Below are positions 4,000 to 24,202 of a DNA stretch of 64,000 nucleotides, piece by piece. The position numbers and the translations under genes are program-made. The notes under the pieces were generated by a model that was given only the letters and a program-made list of their open reading frames with translations, did no database searches and was not told the DNA's origin. This stretch comes from an uncultured Bacilli bacterium (lineage in GTDB: Bacteria; Bacillota_I; Bacilli_A; RF39; UBA660), in the NCBI GenBank assembly GCA_947588765.1, contig CANPZG010000003.1:2032-66031 (forward strand), read 5' to 3'. Position 1 is the first letter of the stretch; each line of letters starts with the position of its first letter.

Positions 4000-5370
4000 T
4001 TATTGTATTTTTTCAACTATTTCTTTAAAGTTTAAGGCTTGGGATGCTTTAACTAATATTTTATCATCACTTTCTTTAATTTTATTAATTAATTTTATAG
4101 CATCTTCATTATTATTAAAATGATATGAATTTTCTTTTTTTATGCCATTACTTATAGCTCTTTCATTAATTAGTTCTGTATAATCACCAACCGTAACTAA
4201 AATATCAATATCTTCTTTAGCAATAACATCCCCTATTTTAGCATGTAAATCTTCGGAATATTCACCAAGTTCTAGCATGGTACCTAAACAAGCAATTTTT
4301 CTTCCCATTAGACTACCTAAATATTTAATACTATAACTTAAAGAATCAAAATTAGAATTATAGCAATCATCAATTACCGTAATACCATTATTTTCAATAA
4401 TATGCATTCTATTTCTGGATAATTCAAAATTATTTATGCCTTTTTCTATTTCTTGATGATTAAGATTTAATATTGTTCCCACACTTATAGCTGATAAGGC
4501 ATTATAAATAAAATGTTCTCCTCCAATAGGGACACGATATAATTCATCATTACAAATAAAAGTACTATAATTTTCTTCTTCCGTTATATTTGTCGCTTTA
4601 AAATCACTTTTTTTATTTATACTAAAAGTTTTAATATTATATTTATCTTTATTATTGTTATACCAATCACTTAGTAAATCATTATCAATATTAATAATTA
4701 AAGTTCCATCTTTATCTAATCCTTCTAAGATTTCTAATTTAGCTTTTAAGATATTTTTACGACTTCCTAAATTACCAATATGAGCTGTTCCAACATTAGT
4801 AATAACGGCAATATTAGGTTTAGCAATATTAGTCAAATAACTAATTTCTTTTAAATGGTTCATACCCATTTCTACAACTAATATATCTTTATCTTCTTCC
4901 ATAGATAGAATTGTTAAAGGTAGGCCAATATGATTATTTTGATTACCAATAGTTTTATGAGCATTATATTTTTCTTTTAAAACACTATAAATCATATCTT
5001 TCGTACTAGTCTTACCAGCACTACCTGTTATTGCTACAACTGGTTTTGTAAAAGTACTTCTTTTATATTTAGCTAGACTACCTAAAGCCATAACAGTATC
5101 TTTAACTAAGATAACACATTTATTATTACTTTTTAAATAATTTATTAATTCTGGAGTTTTTGCAATATTTGATACTATAACGATAGAGGCTCCCTTATTA
5201 AAGGCATCCATATAATGTAAATTTCCATCAAAGTTTTCACCTTTTATTCCGATATAAAGGTCATTATCATGAATCTTTCTAGTATCAATAGATATATTAT
5301 TAATAACAGTATCTATTTTATTTATTATTTCTAAGGCATCAATATTTTCAAATATATCTATGCTTCTCAT
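4000..5370 (-). CDS. murF: UDP-N-acetylmuramoyl-tripeptide--D-alanyl-D-alanine ligase
   Basis: Mur ligase motifs (ITGSAGKTSTKD, NVGTAHIG, DDCYNSN) and a typical length of 456 aa. Confidence 0.9.
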   Translation of the reverse strand: MRSIDIFENIDALEIINKIDTVINNISIDTRKIHDNDLYIGIKGENFDGNLHYMDAFNKGASIVIVSNIAKTPELINYLKSNNKCVILVKDTVMALGSLAKYKRSTFTKPVVAITGSAGKTSTKDMIYSVLKEKYNAHKTIGNQNNHIGLPLTILSMEEDKDILVVEMGMNHLKEISYLTNIAKPNIAVITNVGTAHIGNLGSRKNILKAKLEILEGLDKDGTLIINIDNDLLSDWYNNNKDKYNIKTFSINKKSDFKATNITEEENYSTFICNDELYRVPIGGEHFIYNALSAISVGTILNLNHQEIEKGINNFELSRNRMHIIENNGITVIDDCYNSNFDSLSYSIKYLGSLMGRKIACLGTMLELGEYSEDLHAKIGDVIAKEDIDILVTVGDYTELINERAISNGIKKENSYHFNNNEDAIKLINKIKESDDKILVKASQALNFKEIVEKIQ

Positions 5371-5402: not shown

Positions 5403-7667
5403 CTATTTAAAAACTTTTGTATATAATTCTTTAAATTCATTTATACATCTTATGTCTAGTTTTTCTTTTATAATGTTAGGTAAATCCTCTAACTCTTTTT
5501 TATTAGCTCTAGGTATATATACTATATTTACATCATTATTATATGCAGTAATTAGTTTTTCCTTTAATCCGCCTATGGCAAGTATTTCGCCATTTAAAGT
5601 TATTTCACCAGTAAAAGCCATATTTTTAGGCACTTTTTTCTTTTTAACAATACTGGTTAAAGCTACTAGTATAGCGAGTCCCCCACTTGGGCCATCCTTC
5701 TTTGTCGCCGCATCTAAAAAGTGAATATAAACATCCTTTTTATCTAAAGTAATTTTATAATTAGTTTTAATGTAACTTAAAGCAACATAAATACTTTCCT
5801 TTAAGATATCACCTACGGAACCAGTGAAATAATATTTACCAGTTCCTTCAACTATTTTGGCTTCAACTTTCGAACAAAAACCGCCATAAGAATTTACTCC
5901 TAGAATATTAGCTTCCCCTATTTTACCAGTAGCTAAAGGAATATTTTCCTCCATCGGATTACCCAAAAGAATAGGCAAATCTTTACTAGTTAATTTTTTT
6001 CTACTCGCAATAACCATCTTTCTTACTACTTTTTCTAGTTTTCGTTCTAATTCCCGAACTCCAGCTTCTTTCGTATAATTATTAATGATTGTCTTTATAA
6101 GTTCATCACTTATAGTTATTTCATAATTATATTCTTTATAAATTTTAGGTAATAAATAATATTTAGCAATATCTTTTTTATCAAATATCGTATAACTATT
6201 TAAATTAATTACTTCCACTCTATCTAATAAAACTTCCGGAATATCATTGATATTATTAGCCGTCAAAATAAATAAAATATCACTTAAATCAAATGGTTCT
6301 TCAATATAGTTATCGCGAAACATTTTATTTTGGATTGGATCAATTATTTCGAGTAGGGTACTCGCCGGATCCCCATGATAATTTTTCGTCATTTTATCGA
6401 CTTCATCAATTAGCATAACGAGATTTTTACTTCCACAGCTTTTTAAACCTTGAATTATTTTACCGGGATTAGCTCCAAGATAAGTACGACGCGAACCAAT
6501 TAATTCAGTGGAATCATTCAAACCTCCTACGGAAATCTTATAAAATTTACGATTTAAAACTTCCGCAATAGCCATGGCAATAGATGTTTTACCAACTCCT
6601 GGTGGTCCAATTAAGCAAATAATTGGCGTTTTAATATTATTATTTTTAGCTTTGACGGCGATATATTCACTAATTCTTTCTTTAATTTCGGTTAAACCAT
6701 AATGGGTTTGATTTAATTTTTCAATTATTTCATCTGGATTGATTGGATCTTTCGTTTTATTATTCCATGGTAAATTAATTAACCAATCAATATAAGTTCT
6801 AATAACTCCCATTTCAGGACTTGATTCGTTAATTAAAGAAAACTTTTCAATTTCATTTTCTAACTTTTTTTGAATACTACTAGTTAATTTTAAAGTATTA
6901 AGTTTATTAATAAACTCTTCCGTTTCTTGTTCTTGAGTAGATCTTTCTCCAAGTTCTTCTTTGATAACTTTTATCTTTTCTTTTAAAATAAATTCTTTTT
7001 GATTAGCCTCTATTACTTCACTAACTCTTTCATCTAACTCATCTTCTAGTTTAATAATCGCTATTTCTTCTTTTAAATCATTAAGTAAATTTTTGGCTCG
7101 ATTTAAAGGATTATAGTTTTGCATATATTCACATTTTTTTTCATAATTAAAATTTAGGAATGATGCTATAATATCTGTGATATGGTCTAAAGATTTTGCT
7201 TTAGTAACTGTTGTCAAAATACTATTAGATATATTATTGGAGGAATCAATATATTCTTTTAAAGTAGCAATTAATTTGCGAGTTAAAGCTTTTTCTTCTT
7301 CCGGGGCAAACTTTGGTAATTCTATTTTTTGATATTCTGCATTTAAAACATCTTCATTCCAGTTAGATACAAAATATTTAGTTACAACGACACGAACTAA
7401 TCCTCTTAAAGTTAAGCGAACATTACCACTGGGAAGTTGAATTTTACTTTTGATTTTGGCGATAATTCCGACATTAGGTAAATCATCAACACTCGGTTCT
7501 TCTTCCTTTTTATCAAGAGGTGCCACTACTAAAACTTTACTATCATATTCAAGGGTACTTTTCTTGATAATTAATTTACTTATTTTATTATTTAACTCTA
7601 TTTTTATCTCTTGATTGGGGAGGATAATTAACTCTTTTAAAAGGATAACTGGGATTGTGTTTTTCAA
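5403..7667 (-). CDS. lon: ATP-dependent Lon protease
   Basis: LON N-domain, Walker A GPPGVGKTS, Walker B MLIDEVDK, and the protease motif KDGPSGG. It uses a TTG start after GGAGGTGA. Confidence 0.95.
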   Translation of the reverse strand: MKNTIPVILLKELIILPNQEIKIELNNKISKLIIKKSTLEYDSKVLVVAPLDKKEEEPSVDDLPNVGIIAKIKSKIQLPSGNVRLTLRGLVRVVVTKYFVSNWNEDVLNAEYQKIELPKFAPEEEKALTRKLIATLKEYIDSSNNISNSILTTVTKAKSLDHITDIIASFLNFNYEKKCEYMQNYNPLNRAKNLLNDLKEEIAIIKLEDELDERVSEVIEANQKEFILKEKIKVIKEELGERSTQEQETEEFINKLNTLKLTSSIQKKLENEIEKFSLINESSPEMGVIRTYIDWLINLPWNNKTKDPINPDEIIEKLNQTHYGLTEIKERISEYIAVKAKNNNIKTPIICLIGPPGVGKTSIAMAIAEVLNRKFYKISVGGLNDSTELIGSRRTYLGANPGKIIQGLKSCGSKNLVMLIDEVDKMTKNYHGDPASTLLEIIDPIQNKMFRDNYIEEPFDLSDILFILTANNINDIPEVLLDRVEVINLNSYTIFDKKDIAKYYLLPKIYKEYNYEITISDELIKTIINNYTKEAGVRELERKLEKVVRKMVIASRKKLTSKDLPILLGNPMEENIPLATGKIGEANILGVNSYGGFCSKVEAKIVEGTGKYYFTGSVGDILKESIYVALSYIKTNYKITLDKKDVYIHFLDAATKKDGPSGGLAILVALTSIVKKKKVPKNMAFTGEITLNGEILAIGGLKEKLITAYNNDVNIVYIPRANKKELEDLPNIIKEKLDIRCINEFKELYTKVFK

Positions 7668-13727: not shown

Positions 13728-14915
13728 TTATTTGCCTAGATAAGTTATTCGAGCATAACCATTGCCTCTTTTGGCATACTGGCTTATTGGGCTTTCACTA
13801 GCGTTATTGGTAGTATAGGTTCGAGTATCATCAGCAGTACTTTCAGTACAATTATAACAATACATGACTTTATTTTTTAAAAGAGGATTACCTATATATC
13901 CAGAACCACCTCCAGCTCCAGCATGGCCTCTTGAGCTACCACCCCCACCATAGTAGCCACCGCCACCGCCGGCACCAGCACCATAAAAGTTAGCTTCTTC
14001 CAGTGCATCTATATAATATTTACCACCTTGGCCAAAAGTACCTAAAGCTACATCATTTGTAAAATAAATATCATCTCCCCCTTTTTCTTGTGTGGCTCCA
14101 GTACCATAAAATTGTATATATGGGGATGCAGAGTTTATTCCATTCATGCCTTGAAAACCACCTCCAGAGCCACCATAAGCACTTGAGTTAGTACCACCAT
14201 TTCCACCTCCTCCACCAGCAACAATTATTAATTGATCTTGTTGATCTTTTAATGTAGAAAGCAACCCCTTTACTCTTGCAATATGAGTAGCTCCACCACC
14301 GGCAAATGCAAATTGGCCTTTATAGGCTGAACCACCAATACCACCTCCATTGTATCCCCCTTGATAATCACGTTGATTTGCTGCTCCTATACCATTATAA
14401 AATTCGCCTTGTCCACCAACTACTATATAAATTTTTTCATTTGTTTTTAAATCTATTTCACCAGATGCATAACCACCTAATCCTCCTACTTCTATTGCGC
14501 TATATGTTGCTCCACCTTGAGCACCCCATACTTCTAATTTATAGGTCCCATCAATAGGTGCTATAAATTCTTGAATACTATTTGTATATTCAAAATTTTT
14601 TTCTTTTTTATCAAAATAAATGTTACATTTATCACTTTTATTGCCAGTAATTTGAACTTTGTTATTTACCCAATTTAAAATTGAATCATTTTCACAACTA
14701 CTTTTTACTTTGTTTAACACATAACCATCAGTTGGCCAATTTCTTTTTGTTGTTTGTTCGTATACATTATTATTTTTTTCAATATAATAACTTATTAATC
14801 CTTTTATATTATTTTTTAATTTTTCATTTTCTTTTTGTTTTGGATACACTAATCCAAGAGACAAAACTAAAATTAAAATTAATCCTAAACACATATAAAT
14901 ATTTTTCTTTTTCAT
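13728..14915 (-). CDS. secreted glycine-rich domain protein
   Basis: Signal peptide followed by G-rich blocks (VWGAQGG, GGLGGYASG, VVGGQG, AGGGGGNGG, GAGAGGGGGYYGGGGS), as in bacterial glycine-rich-domain proteins. Confidence 0.8.
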   Translation of the reverse strand: MKKKNIYMCLGLILILVLSLGLVYPKQKENEKLKNNIKGLISYYIEKNNNVYEQTTKRNWPTDGYVLNKVKSSCENDSILNWVNNKVQITGNKSDKCNIYFDKKEKNFEYTNSIQEFIAPIDGTYKLEVWGAQGGATYSAIEVGGLGGYASGEIDLKTNEKIYIVVGGQGEFYNGIGAANQRDYQGGYNGGGIGGSAYKGQFAFAGGGATHIARVKGLLSTLKDQQDQLIIVAGGGGGNGGTNSSAYGGSGGGFQGMNGINSASPYIQFYGTGATQEKGGDDIYFTNDVALGTFGQGGKYYIDALEEANFYGAGAGGGGGYYGGGGSSRGHAGAGGGSGYIGNPLLKNKVMYCYNCTESTADDTRTYTTNNASESPISQYAKRGNGYARITYLGK

Positions 14916-15101: not shown

Positions 15102-17180
15102 TTATGGTGCATAAGTATTTATTTTAAAATTATTATTTTTAATCTTAAACATAATTGTGCCATCAATATCAGTCCGATATATTTTAGAATTACTTAAATT
15201 AGTAATTGTTTCCTCATTAGGGTGCCCATATCGATTATTTTTGCCTACACTAATAATAGAATAAGTAGGTTTTATTGTATTAATAAATTTAGAACTAGAG
15301 CTTGTATTCGAACCATGATGGCCTACTTTTAATACCAAAGGATTTAATTTATATTTACTAATTATTTCTTCTTCCACCATTTTAGGAGCATCACCCATGA
15401 AAAGAAAACCATAATTATTGATTTCAAAATATAAAACTAAACTACTTTCATTTTCATCTTCACTAACATAATTATTTAAACTATACATATTAAAATTAGA
15501 ACTAGTTATTGTTTTAGTAACTTTATTTGTTTTAATTAGAGATTCTTCTAAAGTATTAAAACCATTATTATTCAATATTATTTTCTCTACTTTAAAATTA
15601 TTAATAATATTTAAAGCTTCTCCTCCATGATCATTATCTCCATGGGTAATAATTAATTTATTTATTTTTGAGATGCCTAAACTTTTTAAAAACTTAATGG
15701 TATTATCACTTAAATTATAACTTTTAGTACTTTTTTGCCAGTCTTCTTTTTCATAAGTAATCTTTCCTCCGGTATCAATCATAATTACTTCTTTTTGATG
15801 AGAGCTAATTAAAACTGCTGAATCACCTTGTCCGACATCTAAATAATAAATATAATAACTACTATCTATTTTAGGAATAAACTTATTTAGAATAATTATT
15901 AATAATACCACAATAAATAATTTCTTTATTTTAAAACTTAAAAGTAAAAACAGATAATAAAGAATAATTAAAATTATATTCATTTTAGACATAACAATTA
16001 AGAAACTTAATTTATCAAAGAAATGATTAAAGAATGATAATATATTTAAAGAAACATTAAATATGGGACTAAATATAGTAAAAATAAAAGTTAATAACGC
16101 TAAAGGATAAACAACTAATGAAATAAAAGGAACAAATATTAAATTAGCAATAATACTAGTTAAATTAATTTCATAATTTAAGCTAATGGTTATTGGTAAA
16201 CTAAATAAAAAGGATATTAGACTTAAAGTGAATAATTGTCTTAAGTAGGAACCTTTTATTAGTTTAGTATTTAAAATAATACCACCAGTTATTACAAAAG
16301 AATAAATAAAACCAATATCATAGATAATAAAAGGATTAATAATTATTAAAATACCAGCAGTTAAAAGCAATACTTTAAAATTACTTATTTTTAAATTAAA
16401 TATTTTTTTAATATTAAGTAAAGAGTAGAATAATACAGCTCTAAGTATTGAGGAAGCAAAGTTAGTTAAGAAAGCAAAGAAAAACAATATTAAAGAAATC
16501 ACAATAGTTTTCTTAGTTAATTTCATTTTACTTAAAAACATATCTAGTATTTTTAATAAAATACCAATATGCATTCCTGATATAGCTAATAGATGACTTA
16601 CGCCATTAATTTGAAATTCATTGTAATCTTCACTACTAATCAAACTTTTATCTCCTAAAATAAATATTTTTAAATAATCACTATTAGGTAACTTATTAGT
16701 TCTTTTATAAAAATAATCTTTAATTTTAGCTAAAATATTATTATCTTTATTTACCTTAAAATTAGATATATTAATTGTATAGTATATTTTTTTATTATAT
16801 AAATATTTCTTATAATTAAAAGTATTAGGAATAGTATTATTACTTGGTTCAGTTAATGTTCCATTTATATTTATAGAACACCCAATACATATATTATTTA
16901 ACCAATATTCCTTTTCTTCTTTTGTTTTAAAATAATATGTTCCTTTGAGTTTTTCTTTTGCCTTAATATCTAAAGATAATTTATCGCCATTGATAGCATA
17001 ATTAGTTATTTTACCTTCAAAGTAAGTATCATTAATATTATATTTTGATTGATAAACAATAAATTTAGTAAATACTAAAACATAAATAATTATAAATACT
17101 AATAAGACAATAAAGAATTTATTAAACAGTAATAAATTCTTTAATTTTGTCATATATTTTTTCTCCAATACCTTTGACAT
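15102..17180 (-). CDS. comEC: DNA internalisation competence protein ComEC/Rec2
   Basis: Polytopic competence domain plus a C-terminal metallo-beta-lactamase domain (ITHGDNDHGG, VGHHGS). The exact start is uncertain because the ORF overlaps the comEA 3' end. Confidence 0.9.
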   Translation of the reverse strand: MSKVLEKKYMTKLKNLLLFNKFFIVLLVFIIIYVLVFTKFIVYQSKYNINDTYFEGKITNYAINGDKLSLDIKAKEKLKGTYYFKTKEEKEYWLNNICIGCSININGTLTEPSNNTIPNTFNYKKYLYNKKIYYTINISNFKVNKDNNILAKIKDYFYKRTNKLPNSDYLKIFILGDKSLISSEDYNEFQINGVSHLLAISGMHIGILLKILDMFLSKMKLTKKTIVISLILFFFAFLTNFASSILRAVLFYSLLNIKKIFNLKISNFKVLLLTAGILIIINPFIIYDIGFIYSFVITGGIILNTKLIKGSYLRQLFTLSLISFLFSLPITISLNYEINLTSIIANLIFVPFISLVVYPLALLTFIFTIFSPIFNVSLNILSFFNHFFDKLSFLIVMSKMNIILIILYYLFLLLSFKIKKLFIVVLLIIILNKFIPKIDSSYYIYYLDVGQGDSAVLISSHQKEVIMIDTGGKITYEKEDWQKSTKSYNLSDNTIKFLKSLGISKINKLIITHGDNDHGGEALNIINNFKVEKIILNNNGFNTLEESLIKTNKVTKTITSSNFNMYSLNNYVSEDENESSLVLYFEINNYGFLFMGDAPKMVEEEIISKYKLNPLVLKVGHHGSNTSSSSKFINTIKPTYSIISVGKNNRYGHPNEETITNLSNSKIYRTDIDGTIMFKIKNNNFKINTYAP

Positions 17181-17910
17181 TTAAGATATCTTCAATTGCT
17201 TTAAATGGTCCATTAGCATTACGATAATCAATAATAGCTTGAGCTTTAGATTCCCCTATGCCATTTAATTTAGTTAGTTCAGTAATTGTTGCTGTATTAA
17301 TATTTACAATAACTACTTCATCTTCTTTTACAGTGTCATCATTAATTTCATTATCTGTTTGGCTTTCACTTACTATTGGAGTATTATTTTCAGTATTTTC
17401 CGTTTTTGATGATGTACTTTCTTCATATTTACTCGTAATAGTTACTTTACCTTTTTCTACTTCTTTTGATGTATCTTGATTATTAGTAGTTGATTTTTGA
17501 GTTTCAACTTTTGTAACCTCTTTATTAGTTTCTTTACTGGTATTAATACTTGGAATAACAACTAACATTTCATCAGTTAAAAGTGTACTTAAACTAATAT
17601 TTTTAATATTCGCTTTATCAGTTAAACCACCAGAAGAATTAATTAAATCATTAATGGTACTTCCTTCATCTAATTCATAAACTCCAGCATTAGCAATCTC
17701 ACCTTTAACATTAACTTTTAGTTTAGCTAGAGTATTAATTTCTTCAACATCTTCTTTTTCAACAACTAGATTTTCTTCAACTTTATTATTTCTATTATGT
17801 AATTTTATTATTACACATATAAGTAAAACTATAATAACAATAAATAAAATACTATCTATTATTATAGCAACATATTTATTATTAATTATTTTTCTAAAAA
17901 ATTCTTGCAT
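17122..17910 (-). CDS. comEA: competence DNA receptor ComEA
   Basis: N-terminal TM helix, an SLBB-like region and a C-terminal tandem helix-hairpin-helix (LNGIGESKAQAIIDYR...VKGIGEKIYDKI). Confidence 0.85.
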   Translation of the reverse strand: MQEFFRKIINNKYVAIIIDSILFIVIIVLLICVIIKLHNRNNKVEENLVVEKEDVEEINTLAKLKVNVKGEIANAGVYELDEGSTINDLINSSGGLTDKANIKNISLSTLLTDEMLVVIPSINTSKETNKEVTKVETQKSTTNNQDTSKEVEKGKVTITSKYEESTSSKTENTENNTPIVSESQTDNEINDDTVKEDEVVIVNINTATITELTKLNGIGESKAQAIIDYRNANGPFKAIEDILNVKGIGEKIYDKIKEFITV

Positions 17911-18037
17911 CTTTCCTCCTTTTAAAATTAGAATTTTTTATGCTATTTTCTTATACCCTTCACTTATATATATTTCCCCTTACCCCTTGATTTCCTTTTT
18001 TTTGAGTGAAATTTTTTAAATTTGTTAAAAAATTTGT

Positions 18038-18064
18038 CGAAAAAACTTCATCAAATGATGAAGT
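18038..18064 (-). terminator. intrinsic terminator downstream of the toxN-like gene
   Basis: Minus strand: ACUUCAUC-AUUU-GAUGAAGU followed by UUUUUU. Confidence 0.7.
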
Positions 18065-18145
18065 AAATTTAGTCCTAAATATTTATTATAATAAATTTTT
18101 TTGTATTTTTAATTTCAGCAAAAAAGAATTTTGTGATTCTATAAT

Positions 18146-18625
18146 TTATTTACATTTCATTTTATTTTCTTCTAACATTTTTTCTTTTAGTTTATCTATA
18201 TCCGTGAAAAATAAATTTGTACCTCTCTTCTTTAATCCTATCATATTTTTAAATAAAATTTTAATTTCATTTTGCAAATCTGTTGGGACTCTTAATGGTA
18301 CCCCATCAATAGTATGAACGTGATCAATATATTTTTCTAATGTTGGAAAAGCATTTTGTAATAATATAGCCGCATTTTCATTAGCAATCTTTCTAATTAT
18401 TATTGTATTACAAAAAACATATTTTTCAATTTTTTTATCAATTATCTTTTGATATTTAATTACTTTAGAACTCACCGGAATAAACCATAATATATTATCA
18501 TCTCTTATTGTAAAATATGTTGGCCTTTTTTTTCCTCTTTCATGATTTTGCATTAAACTTTCATCGTTAACGATATCAAAATATTCATCTTTGATATGAT
18601 ATAAATAGCCTGTTTTTATTTGCAT
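18146..18625 (-). CDS. ToxN/AbiQ/CptN-like type III toxin (putative endoribonuclease)
   Basis: The N-terminal pattern YLYHIKDEYFDIV...KRPTYFTI...WFIPVSSK resembles ToxN/AbiQ. The protein is about 159 aa and follows an RNA repeat array plus terminator. The likely start is MQIKTG after AAGGAA (the track ORF extends to 18634). Confidence 0.65.
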   Translation of the reverse strand: MQIKTGYLYHIKDEYFDIVNDESLMQNHERGKKRPTYFTIRDDNILWFIPVSSKVIKYQKIIDKKIEKYVFCNTIIIRKIANENAAILLQNAFPTLEKYIDHVHTIDGVPLRVPTDLQNEIKILFKNMIGLKKRGTNLFFTDIDKLKEKMLEENKMKCK

Positions 18626-18654
18626 TGTCGTCATTTCCTTAGATAATATATCAT

Positions 18655-18688
18655 AAATAAAAAGAAAACTCCATCAAATAATGAAGTT
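18655..18688 (-). terminator. intrinsic terminator between the repeat RNA and the toxin ORF
   Basis: Minus strand: AACUUCAU-UAUUUG-AUGGAGUU followed by a U-rich run. Confidence 0.65.
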
Positions 18689-18700
18689 ATCTTACATTTT

Positions 18701-18798
18701 CAACCAGGATTATTTATTAGTCGCACCACCTGGAAGCGAAAAACATTGTCGCCTGGAATCATTTATTAGTCGCACCATCCAGAAGCGAGAAACATTTA
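18701..18798 (-). ncRNA. ToxI/CptI-like antitoxin RNA: 2 tandem 49-nt repeats
   Basis: The core ATTTATTAGTCGCACCA occurs at 18712-18728 and 18761-18777. A 5-bp stem is preserved by three compensatory changes (CCAGG/CCTGG versus CTGGA/TCCAG). Confidence 0.65.
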
Positions 18799-18819
18799 CA
18801 CACTTTTCAGTGCAATTTA

Positions 18820-18848
18820 AATATACTATATTTTTAAGAAAATGTCAA
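18820..18848 (-). promoter_or_regulatory. promoter TTGACA-17-TATATT driving the repeat RNA and toxin
   Basis: Minus strand: TTGACA at 18848-18843 and TATATT at 18825-18820. Confidence 0.6.
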
Positions 18849-18878
18849 ATAGTACATTAATAGTATATTCAGATTTTA

Positions 18879-22597: not shown

Positions 22598-24202
22598 TTA
22601 TGATAAATCTAAACGATATGGACTTTCCATTGTACCAATTGTATCAATACTGTTTTTAACTTTAGTTGATGCAGTAATATAAAAGGTAGGTCTAACAGAT
22701 ACAGCATCAGACGTTACTGTATGACTATTACTTGTCCACACATAATTTTTGTATCTATTAACATATGAATCTGTTCCACGCGGTGTACGAGAAATAGTCC
22801 ATTCCACAAGGCCTTCATATAACCAATTATTATCAATTATCTTATCAATTTCATAATTAAGGAATGACTCGTTCCAATTATTTGATGTGGTAGCATACAT
22901 ATAATCACTCTTATACATTAATCCTATTTTTGCTATATATGTTAGATCATTTACTTGATTGCATAATCTTTTAGTATTAATTATTAAAGTTTTACTTTTT
23001 TGAGTATAACAATTACCATTAGTAGTAGTTTTATTTTTACCCAATTCATTTTCATATGTGACTTTGGCATTTCCTAATTCACTTATACCACCAACTACCC
23101 AAATATTATTTGAAATATGGTTTACAAGTCCAGCAACATTTGAGGTTAAATAATTTAAATAAAAATTGTTAAGATTCATTTTATTTAGATTACTTTCTTC
23201 CCACATATCCGAATTTATATTCTTTTCTTCATTTGGAAGAGAGTTATTAAAAGCATAATAGTTATTTTGACCTATATACGCACCTCCAATAATTGCTGAA
23301 TCCCCTAATTGTTCCTTAGTTGCTTCCTTAGCCTTAATAAGTTTCATTTCATATAAATTTTCATCATTTTTAAATAAGCCAATAATACGATAAAGATTCA
23401 TATCTCCATTTTGACAAGCGCCTTCAGTAGTTACACCGTCTAAACAAACATAATTGTTTTTTACTACATCATTTCCACCACTATAGCGATATGAATAGTC
23501 TTCGGCATCCATTATTTGTCCGTCTATTTTTATCGTTCCATTATGATAAAGTAATGTATCATCTTTCTTATTAATTAAATATTCAGCCATACTTTCAACT
23601 CTATCAAAAGATTTAACAGAAACTCCTATTTTAAAGCTTTGATTCATTGGAACATTTTCTGTCTTGCTACTATCAAGCCATATATGTAATTTATATTCAC
23701 TTTCTCCTTTTAAAGGAATATTATTTGTAAATACTTTATATATCTTTTTATAACCTTTTGTTACACCACTATTTAATTGATTTTTTTCGGCATCAGTTAA
23801 ATCTTTTTCTCCATCAGGCATACTTGTTAATATATCACTAGCCAAAACTGTATCATTTTTACTTGTTATAGCAAATTTAATTGTACCATCATCTATTTCT
23901 GATTCATAAGTAGTTAAGTATAAATCAAAGCCAACGTAATTATCACATGTACTTGATACTGTAAAATCATAGGCGTCCGTTTGTAATCCCATTTCATCAT
24001 CCATAGGATACATATTTGTTAAATTAATAGTATTACTATTTTCTTTTAATGAAATCTTAGCACAACTATTAACCTTTACATCAGTATTTTTATCACCACT
24101 TGTTTTACTCTTCATATAGGAATATGTTGCATTTAAAGATAATATTGCAACAATTAATGTTCCTAAAAAAGTTAATAATATTACTTTTGTTCTCTTATTC
24201 AT
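22598..24202 (-). CDS. signal-anchored secreted or surface protein, family member 2
   Basis: N-terminal TM helix ending in ATYSYMKS, with YSYRYSGG..NNYVC...LYRIIGLF, IGLMYKSDYMY, NWLYEGLVEWTISR, and a C-terminal VRPTFYI...GTMESPYRL. Confidence 0.8.
   Translation of the reverse strand: MNKRTKVILLTFLGTLIVAILSLNATYSYMKSKTSGDKNTDVKVNSCAKISLKENSNTINLTNMYPMDDEMGLQTDAYDFTVSSTCDNYVGFDLYLTTYESEIDDGTIKFAITSKNDTVLASDILTSMPDGEKDLTDAEKNQLNSGVTKGYKKIYKVFTNNIPLKGESEYKLHIWLDSSKTENVPMNQSFKIGVSVKSFDRVESMAEYLINKKDDTLLYHNGTIKIDGQIMDAEDYSYRYSGGNDVVKNNYVCLDGVTTEGACQNGDMNLYRIIGLFKNDENLYEMKLIKAKEATKEQLGDSAIIGGAYIGQNNYYAFNNSLPNEEKNINSDMWEESNLNKMNLNNFYLNYLTSNVAGLVNHISNNIWVVGGISELGNAKVTYENELGKNKTTTNGNCYTQKSKTLIINTKRLCNQVNDLTYIAKIGLMYKSDYMYATTSNNWNESFLNYEIDKIIDNNWLYEGLVEWTISRTPRGTDSYVNRYKNYVWTSNSHTVTSDAVSVRPTFYITASTKVKNSIDTIGTMESPYRLDLS

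Follow-up and report, generated by a model that had tools for sequence, protein, structure and literature searches.

The cptIN locus and its toxin

We analysed 64,000 nucleotides of DNA from an uncultured Bacilli bacterium of the RF39 lineage (assembly GCA_947588765.1, contig CANPZG010000003.1, positions 2,032 to 66,031 of the forward strand); this whole stretch is referred to below as the window. Its minus strand contains what is very probably a chromosomal type III toxin-antitoxin module of the CptIN family, residing in an uncultured gut bacterium. In the direction of transcription, the locus consists of a promoter, a leader hairpin, two repeats of 49 nt, a terminator, a Shine-Dalgarno box, the toxin open reading frame (ORF), and a second hairpin (Table 1). 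The promoter, the repeats, the terminator hairpin and the ORF have the layout by which type III loci were recognised in PMC3401426. A first-pass annotation of this region had proposed a type III module closest to CptIN, and all elements listed there were recovered on the minus strand at the positions where it had placed them. The assignment is based on the homology of the toxin, the conservation of the layout, the base-pairing of the RNA, and selection acting on both the toxin and the RNA.

The ORF cptN is predicted to encode an endoribonuclease. It matches the NCBIfam equivalog NF047359, "type III toxin-antitoxin system CptIN family toxin", with E = 3.8e-45 and 153.4 bits (the cut-off is 90), and the alignment spans profile positions 1-150 of 150. 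Chain A of PDB entry 4RMO, that is, CptN, is matched over residues 7-152 (146 residues) with E = 1.2e-19; identity between the window toxin and CptN of 4RMO, calculated to the first sequence of the MAFFT alignment, is 38%. The first-pass annotation had suggested searching profile and structure families with this ORF, and had described it as similar to ToxN and AbiQ. Both matches point to CptN, which it had also guessed, rather than to ToxN proper: Pfam family PF13958 (ToxN_toxin) scores 15.5 bits, E = 0.021, under the gathering score of 25, and the relationship to ToxN appears to hold at the superfamily level only. No TenpN-type family was found among the Pfam or NCBIfam matches at E <= 1, CptIN being the sole strong match.

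The first in-frame ATG is at 18634. The homologues begin with M-[EK]-IKTGYLYH, and given these starts and the spacing of the Shine-Dalgarno box, the ATG at 18625 is preferred, which agrees with the ORF as originally annotated. The active site of the E. rectale CptN ribonuclease consists of a Ser-Ser/Thr-Arg triad and residues reading the scissile adenine, which is specified by Asp81, Ser85 and Tyr104 (PMC4627078). The window motif IPVSSKV (IP[VI]SSK) aligns with IPLSSRI of CptN. The pair Ser52-Ser53 is invariant in 30 homologues, and the window, like 90% or more of the relatives, has lysine in place of the triad arginine.

CptN relatives are numerous, with 2664 proteins at E <= 1e-3 in a database clustered at 90%; at 50% identity, 963 clusters reach this E-value. 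A relative is encoded in 355 species-level genomes. The comparisons of loci below use the best 80 of these 355 (72-92% identity), and the alignment of control regions covers 59 distinct loci. The window toxin also matches phrog_33519, a family of unknown function (E = 1.1e-21), and therefore some phage genomes encode CptN-like proteins; tblastn found no CptN homologue in the INPHARED phage genomes. Two plus-strand ORFs, 18006-18317 and 18681-18860, were considered and rejected as mechanical ORFs in AT-rich DNA, unsupported and antisense to conserved features.

Table 1. Elements of the cptIN locus, listed in the direction of transcription
Feature	Position in the window	Strand	Details and basis
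Two 11-nt direct repeats, AATATACTATT and AATGTACTATT	18849..18869	minus	abut the -35 hexamer; Tandem Repeats Finder, 18848-18869, period 11
Sigma-70-type promoter of the cptI-cptN transcript, TTGACA-17-TATATT	18820..18848	minus	11/12 positions
5' leader hairpin, core GCAC...GUGU	18796..18815	minus	at the transcript start, upstream of the first unit border; folds in the window
CptI unit 1, 49 nt	18749..18797	minus	direct repeat D1, covariation, alignment to E. rectale CptI
CptI unit 2, 49 nt	18700..18748	minus	direct repeat, covariation, alignment to E. rectale CptI
Start of a partial third unit, AAAUGU	18694..18699	minus	AAUGU at period 49; gives unit 2 its 3' border motif
Intrinsic terminator between repeats and cptN	18655..18693	minus	9-bp stem and 4-bp outer stem, then UUUUCUUUUUAUUU
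Extended -10-like motif TGATATATT	18645..18653	minus	conserved columns; between terminator and Shine-Dalgarno box
Shine-Dalgarno box AAGGA	18636..18640	minus	10 nt 5' of ATG 18625; GGAG at the equivalent place in related loci
cptN, 159-aa toxin, predicted endoribonuclease	18146..18625	minus	homology to NCBIfam CptIN and 4RMO
Terminator hairpin ACUUCAUC-AUUU-GAUGAAGU and U-run, 3' of cptN	18038..18064	minus	scanner match

The antitoxin repeats and their fold

The direct-repeat search identified two contiguous 49-nt copies with 78% identity, 18694-18742 and 18743-18791; the repeats reported in the first-pass annotation (18798-18701) are the same array in another register. The junction motif AAUGU occurs three times with period 49, at all three unit borders, and thus the array comprises approximately 2.1 units. 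We set the register of the units by the conserved G-A, the inferred cut site.

Each unit is an H-type pseudoknot, since the two helices, S1 and S2, are interleaved. In unit 1, S1 is formed by 18789-18785/18773-18769 and S2 by 18782-18778/18757-18753, and the A-rich loop L2 reads ACUAAUAAAUGAU. The corresponding stems of unit 2 are 18740-18736/18724-18720 and 18733-18729/18708-18704. S1 has the sequence UCGC/GCGA and variants thereof. S2 is CUGGA/UCCAG in unit 1 and CCAGG/CCUGG in unit 2; these are exactly the three compensatory double changes claimed previously, with all five pairs kept.

The inference of selection on the RNA structure, made initially from these two copies, is borne out by an alignment of 64 distinct units from the related loci, in which the second helix was found as well (S1, columns 8-12/27-31; S2, columns 15-19/44-48). 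Standard pairs occupy 96.1% of the cells, compared with 87.6% in column shuffles and 30-53% when the 3' partners are slid by 1-3 columns. Six of the ten pairs have changes on both sides, and the observed covariation score was reached by none of 500 shuffles. The slid control corrects for the relatedness of the units and the shuffle control does not; under the slid control, the pairing collapses.

The 45-nt CptI sequence of E. rectale was derived from a primer in PMC4627078 and checked against the numbering of that paper. It has the same topology, with a short loop L1 and a long A-rich L2 with an AUAAAU core, and shares with the window units the 5' A-GUUU tail, both arms of S1, the L2 positions A29-U30-A31-A32-A33-U34, and the terminal G44-A45. 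The 3' end of unit 2, GUUGA, is the same as that of the E. rectale unit. Mutation of A29 or of the kink nucleotide U30 abolished the antitoxin activity of E. rectale CptI (PMC4627078). The border motif (G-A)(A/C)AAUGU recurs at the unit period, and by analogy with E. rectale the RNA is most likely cut after G-A, at 18749/18748 and 18700/18699.

A survey from 2025 still describes the repeats of cptI as nearly identical (PMC12283969). Of the 75 related loci with a two-unit array, 59 have different S2 stems in their two units, and 47 show the exact S2 combination of the window. The commonest form of unit 2 is identical in 41 loci, while the adjacent synonymous sites differ by 40-60%; hence the RNA sequence, and not the pairing alone, is strongly constrained. 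The window copy differs from this form by one base in L2 (AAAUAAU vs AAAUGAU).

The array was missed by two general tools. Tandem Repeats Finder did not report it, which is no surprise with just two copies that are 78% identical. The Rfam search at E <= 10 produced only chance matches to small nucleolar RNA and microRNA families, CptI having no Rfam family. In INPHARED, there is no DNA resembling the array, and no phage-borne antitoxin mimic was found.

Related loci, control elements and neighbourhood

The best 80 relatives all come from uncultured gut Bacilli, some of them labelled Tenericutes or Erysipelotrichaceae, sampled from rabbit, Hadza human, goat, and mouse; one is a closed chromosome of 1.52 Mb. 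Two units at a spacing of 49-51 nt are present in 75 of the 80 loci. The spacing is 49 nt in 54 loci and 51 nt in 23 cases (some from second arrays), and 50 nt occurs once. The upstream regions repeat the same layout almost base for base, and a control region of 226 nt can be aligned across all 59 distinct loci. Since 75 related loci share the architecture, and since the pairing exceeds both the shuffled and the slid controls, the array and its arrangement are far beyond chance.

Compared with the window, cptN has a non-synonymous divergence (dN) of 0.05-0.20 and a synonymous divergence (dS) of 0.6-1.7, with dN/dS of 0.06-0.27 and a proportion of synonymous differences (pS) of 0.41-0.67. For ppdK from the same genome pairs, dN is 0.16-0.31 and dS is 0.84-1.5; the dS values of both genes are near saturation. 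The cptN gene is under purifying selection, and CptN is more constrained at the protein level than the central metabolic enzyme encoded by ppdK. Because the two genes have similar dS, cptN is old in these lineages and is no recent arrival. Recent horizontal spread was considered as a reason for the stronger conservation of CptN and rejected, as cptN dS is of the same order as that of ppdK and constraint at the protein level explains most of the effect. The identity of cptN does not track that of ppdK (rho = -0.35, p = 0.05), and thus some exchange of cptN is possible.

The annotated promoter is the best site in a scan of 1.3 kb, and TTGAC together with most of the -10 hexamer is invariant in the 59 aligned loci. 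The 11-nt repeats may serve as an UP element or as an operator. A similar stretch, ATATACTA..AATGTATACTA, lies 5' of TTGACA in most related loci, including some that have no ppdK upstream. The leader hairpin forms in 59 of 59 distinct loci with a mean energy of -6.3 kcal/mol, and its stems differ among loci (GCAC/GUGC, CUAC/GUGG, CCAU/AUGG, GUAC/GUAC, UCAC/GUGA); its role may be to stabilise the RNA.

The first hairpin of the original annotation proved to be real: the internal terminator, AACUUCAUU-AUUU-GAUGGAGUU followed by a U-run (18693-18655), folds at -11.1 kcal/mol with z = -3.47. A hairpin of -11 to -17 kcal/mol with variable stem sequences is formed at this place in 59 of 59 distinct loci. 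Downstream of it, the columns T-G-x-T-A-T-x-x-T are conserved at 90% or more while the neighbouring columns vary, and TGnTAnnnT is present in 52 of the 59 loci. The motif TGATATATT is therefore listed as a candidate second, weak promoter of cptN. Some related loci (by our locus numbers, L019, L038, L040, L041, L043, L048, L051, L057 and L059) have an insert of ~100 nt between the cptI terminator and cptN. The insert carries a full promoter, TTGACG…TATATT, so that the array and cptN appear to be separately transcribed there.

The second terminator of the first-pass annotation was called by the scanner at 18064..18045. It folds at -9.1 kcal/mol (z = -3.2) and is 83% identical to the internal terminator over 30 nt (direct repeat D3). 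This hairpin (18064-18038) may act as the module's distal terminator or be what remains of a second module lacking repeats, as in L071 and L077, where cptN is followed by a repeat-less copy of the promoter, the leader, "GAAAAUGU", and the terminator. A promoter-like sequence TTAAAA-16-TATAAT (18112-18085) stands 3' of cptN in front of the hairpin 18064-18045, and the element 18112-18038 as a whole may be a more eroded relic of this kind. Directly after the cptN stop codon there is a weak AT-rich hairpin, AGAAU-CACAAA-AUUCU with a T-run (18120-18140), that was not called by the scanner and could be a first, leaky terminator.

The 3' side of the related loci varies. Second cptIN modules are found in tandem, 3' of the first one, in L002 (~4600-4770), L006 (~6800-6960), L013, L031 (4871-5341), L049 and L061; the second toxin of L031 is only 64% identical, and its repeat stems differ (AACCGC…CUCAGA…). 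In L073, ~150-330 nt past the cptN stop, there are three repeats of ~37 nt (AAAGCGGTGATCCTAGCCATTAAATTAGGAACGAAC…), a terminator and the start of an ORF, probably representing a second, ToxIN-like type III module beside cptIN. A conserved element of ~100 nt (…AAGTCATTTTAAAAATAATATTTTATAAATTTAATCTTATTCATCCCGAATGAGATTGTGGTACAAGC…) occupies the first ~100 nt past the cptN stop in many related loci (L003, L005-L010, L013, L015, L016, L020, L034, L054, L055, L064, L071, L072, L074, L077) and is absent from the window. In L027, L033 and L079 the cptN frame is interrupted (66 aa, 25 aa, or shifted), which makes these copies either pseudogenes or products of faulty assembly.

Five IMG/VR contigs encode relatives that have two-unit arrays of their own, and non-identical units are also seen in more distant relatives on IMG/VR contigs. 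The 3-kb flanks of two of the five contigs contain no phage hallmark genes, and thus viral origin is not established. Seven plasmids, e.g. NZ_CP048628.1 of Megamonas funiformis and NZ_CP075965.1 of Clostridium perfringens, encode distant CptN homologues of 28-41% identity, all annotated as hypothetical proteins.

The module of the window is flanked downstream by the genes for trigger factor, holA, comEC and comEA, and upstream by ppdK, a pilin-like gene, ruvA and obg. These surroundings do not form a defence island, and no mobile element is evident in them. In roughly one in three related loci ppdK is the immediate upstream neighbour of the module, and several more have it no further than 2 kb away; the downstream side varies. 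Between holA and comEC, a 395-aa ORF (13728-14915, minus strand) matches the Pfam glycine-rich domain ALK_LTK_GRD with E = 2e-38, an unexpected family name in bacterial housekeeping surroundings. No Pfam family matches, at E <= 1e-5, the 534-aa ORF (22598-24202, minus strand) that lies between ruvA and obg. The comEA-like ORF (17122-17910) and the comEC ORF (15102-17180), as listed, overlap by 59 nt (17122-17180), and the true start of comEC is probably further downstream.

Mechanism, role and comparison with known systems

By analogy with the CptIN family, from which cleavage, complex formation, toxicity and the trigger are taken, the module would operate as follows. The strong sigma-70 promoter would drive transcription of the short 5' hairpin and the two repeats. 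The intrinsic terminator would stop most transcripts, and hence the RNA would be in excess over the toxin message; cptN mRNA would arise by read-through and possibly also from the weak extended -10 promoter just past the terminator. CptN, an endoribonuclease of the ToxN/CptN fold, would cut the precursor at (G-A)(A/C)AAUGU, likely after G-A as in E. rectale, releasing two 49-nt units. In the folded unit, with S1 (UCGC/GCGA) and S2 (CUGGA/UCCAG or CCAGG/CCUGG), the A-rich AUAAAU loop would pack on S1. The units and CptN would then assemble into a closed protein-RNA ring (two proteins and two RNAs in E. rectale) in which the active site is blocked. If RNA synthesis stopped, because of the loss of the locus or because a phage shuts off host transcription, the RNA would decay and free CptN would degrade cellular RNA and arrest growth.

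The closest characterised system is CptIN of E. rectale (4RMO). Rao et al. (2015, PMC4627078) demonstrated that its toxin and RNA assemble into a 2:2 ring and that the RNA forms the pseudoknot; the system was also self-processing, was specific to the cognate RNA and stabilised plasmids. Like the window locus, it is a chromosomal module of a gut member of the Bacillota, with two tandem repeats upstream, a terminator in front of the toxin gene, and a homologous toxin bearing the Ser-Ser pair in the same motif. It differs in the length of the unit (45 nt versus 49 nt here and 51 nt in a sister clade). The units here share only 78% identity and have three compensatory changes in S2; the toxin has lysine for the triad arginine and replacements at positions 81, 85 and 104; and there are a conserved leader hairpin and an extended -10-like motif before cptN. 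Blower et al. (2012) catalogued cptIN from 33 loci, all chromosomal, in which the repeats measure 40-48 nt and number 1.9-3.4 copies (PMC3401426). The 2.1 copies of the window are within this range and its unit exceeds the largest one catalogued then by one nucleotide, the range being descriptive and no criterion of membership.

The ToxIN systems of Pectobacterium atrosepticum and Bacillus thuringiensis have the same succession of promoter, tandem RNA repeats, terminator and endoribonuclease toxin, and the same logic, the toxin processing its own antitoxin and pseudoknot units inhibiting it in a closed protein-RNA ring. However, ToxI units are of 36 nt (31 to 62 nt in the toxIN family) and occur in higher number, ToxIN assembles as a 3:3 triangle whereas CptIN forms a 2:2 ring, and abortive infection is proven for ToxIN. 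AbiQ/antiQ of Lactococcus lactis is likewise a type III system from a low-GC Gram-positive bacterium and combines a ToxN-like ribonuclease with an upstream repeat RNA; unlike the present module, AbiQ belongs to the toxIN family (PMC3401426), is plasmid-borne and is a proven phage defence, and no direct similarity to it was detected here. TenpIN of Photorhabdus luminescens and relatives resembles the window locus in having about two repeats of roughly 50 nt. Many tenpIN loci have non-identical repeats, predicted pseudoknots and a conserved stretch of A (PMC12283969). The toxin here, in contrast, is CptN by both the profile and the structure-sequence match.

We conclude that the locus, though well conserved, is an ordinary CptIN-family member, of a kind already known and involving no new mechanism. 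Its departures from the published CptIN loci, namely the 49-nt unit, the conserved heterogeneity of the units, Ser-Ser-Lys for Ser-Ser-Arg, the changed adenine-reading residues, the leader hairpin and the possible internal promoter, are variations of detail. Several observations weigh against it or against its functioning exactly as in E. rectale. No PADLOC model matches the locus. The consensus terminator scanner did not call the internal terminator, which has few G-C pairs, as this scanner requires at least three; along with the result of Tandem Repeats Finder, this reflects the limits of the tools and is no evidence against the features. The AlphaFold2 model built from 30 close homologues, all of them at least 81% identical, had a predicted local distance difference test score (pLDDT) of 40.5 and a predicted template modelling score (pTM) of 0.26 and was discarded. 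The equivalent of Asp81 is Asn in the window, while being Asp in most relatives, and Ser85 and Tyr104 are replaced by Ala and His across the whole clade; with the adenine-reading residues and the triad arginine replaced, the exact cut site may differ from that in E. rectale. The leader border of the window is G-U rather than G-A, so that the first site may be cut poorly. Finally, ToxIN, AbiQ and TenpIN are the systems for which abortive infection is established; for CptIN, none is reported in PMC3401426 and PMC4627078.

Some of these features might indicate that the window copy is decaying or inactive, with a weakened toxin and an RNA no longer processed at its first site: it has the Asn at a position where most relatives keep Asp and the G-U border, and cptN is interrupted in three of the related loci. 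This is very unlikely, as the ORF is of full length and retains all residues invariant across the 30 homologues, both units keep every base pair, the promoter, the terminator and the Shine-Dalgarno box are intact, and an identical protein is encoded on two further contigs. Still harder to believe is that the repeats are a cis-acting leader, for instance an attenuator, regulating cptN only and providing no antitoxin in trans. The repeats do share a transcription unit with cptN, occupying its 5' part in front of a terminator, and no Rfam family matches them; however, the units are independent pseudoknots homologous in both sequence and topology to the CptI bound by CptN in the crystal, the border motifs recur at the unit period, and the ~100-nt promoter insert separating the array from cptN in seven related loci fits a separate RNA better.

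A more substantial doubt concerns the role of the machine rather than its nature. The first-pass annotation had ascribed to it defence against phages by abortive infection, which holds for the sister families and not for CptIN, whose reported phenotypes are toxicity with rescue by the antitoxin and plasmid stabilisation; in E. coli it gave no defence against coliphages, of which 6 and later >200 were tried (PMC3401426, PMC4627078). It is a tentative but real possibility that the module of the window is a selfish addiction module that secures its own persistence in the chromosome, or an RNase switch with a housekeeping function. In agreement with that, its neighbours are housekeeping genes and not a defence island, PADLOC recognises nothing here, and the synonymous divergence of cptN, being like that of ppdK, suggests long residence rather than the rapid turnover of defence genes. 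On the other hand, the phages tested were coliphages in a distant heterologous host, ToxIN, AbiQ and TenpIN do abort infection, the stacked second cptIN modules and the one different-looking type III array resemble the diversification of defence genes, and the identity of cptN does not follow that of ppdK. A further idea is that the array encodes two deliberately different antitoxin RNAs, possibly one each in an asymmetric CptN ring, as the same S2 pair per unit is kept in 47 of 75 loci, the module being a long-resident, strongly constrained fixture of small-genome gut Bacilli, with its own toxin promoter and a host function rather than one of mobile defence. We mention this as a speculation that is rather improbable.

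Identified as a CptIN module, the locus would already be named as such at the level of the toxin family by the NCBI annotation models. With its relatives, the CptIN family gains a large and coherent clade from uncultured hosts: gut Bacilli of rabbit, human, goat and mouse samples, with hundreds of species-level genomes. The pseudoknot of CptI, until now resting mainly on a single crystal structure, receives comparative support, and non-identical cptI units turn out to be common and capable of being stably maintained, in contrast to the earlier description. The practical value lies in better annotation and in a collection of naturally occurring variants, of both RNA and protein, with which the co-evolution of toxin and antitoxin can be studied.

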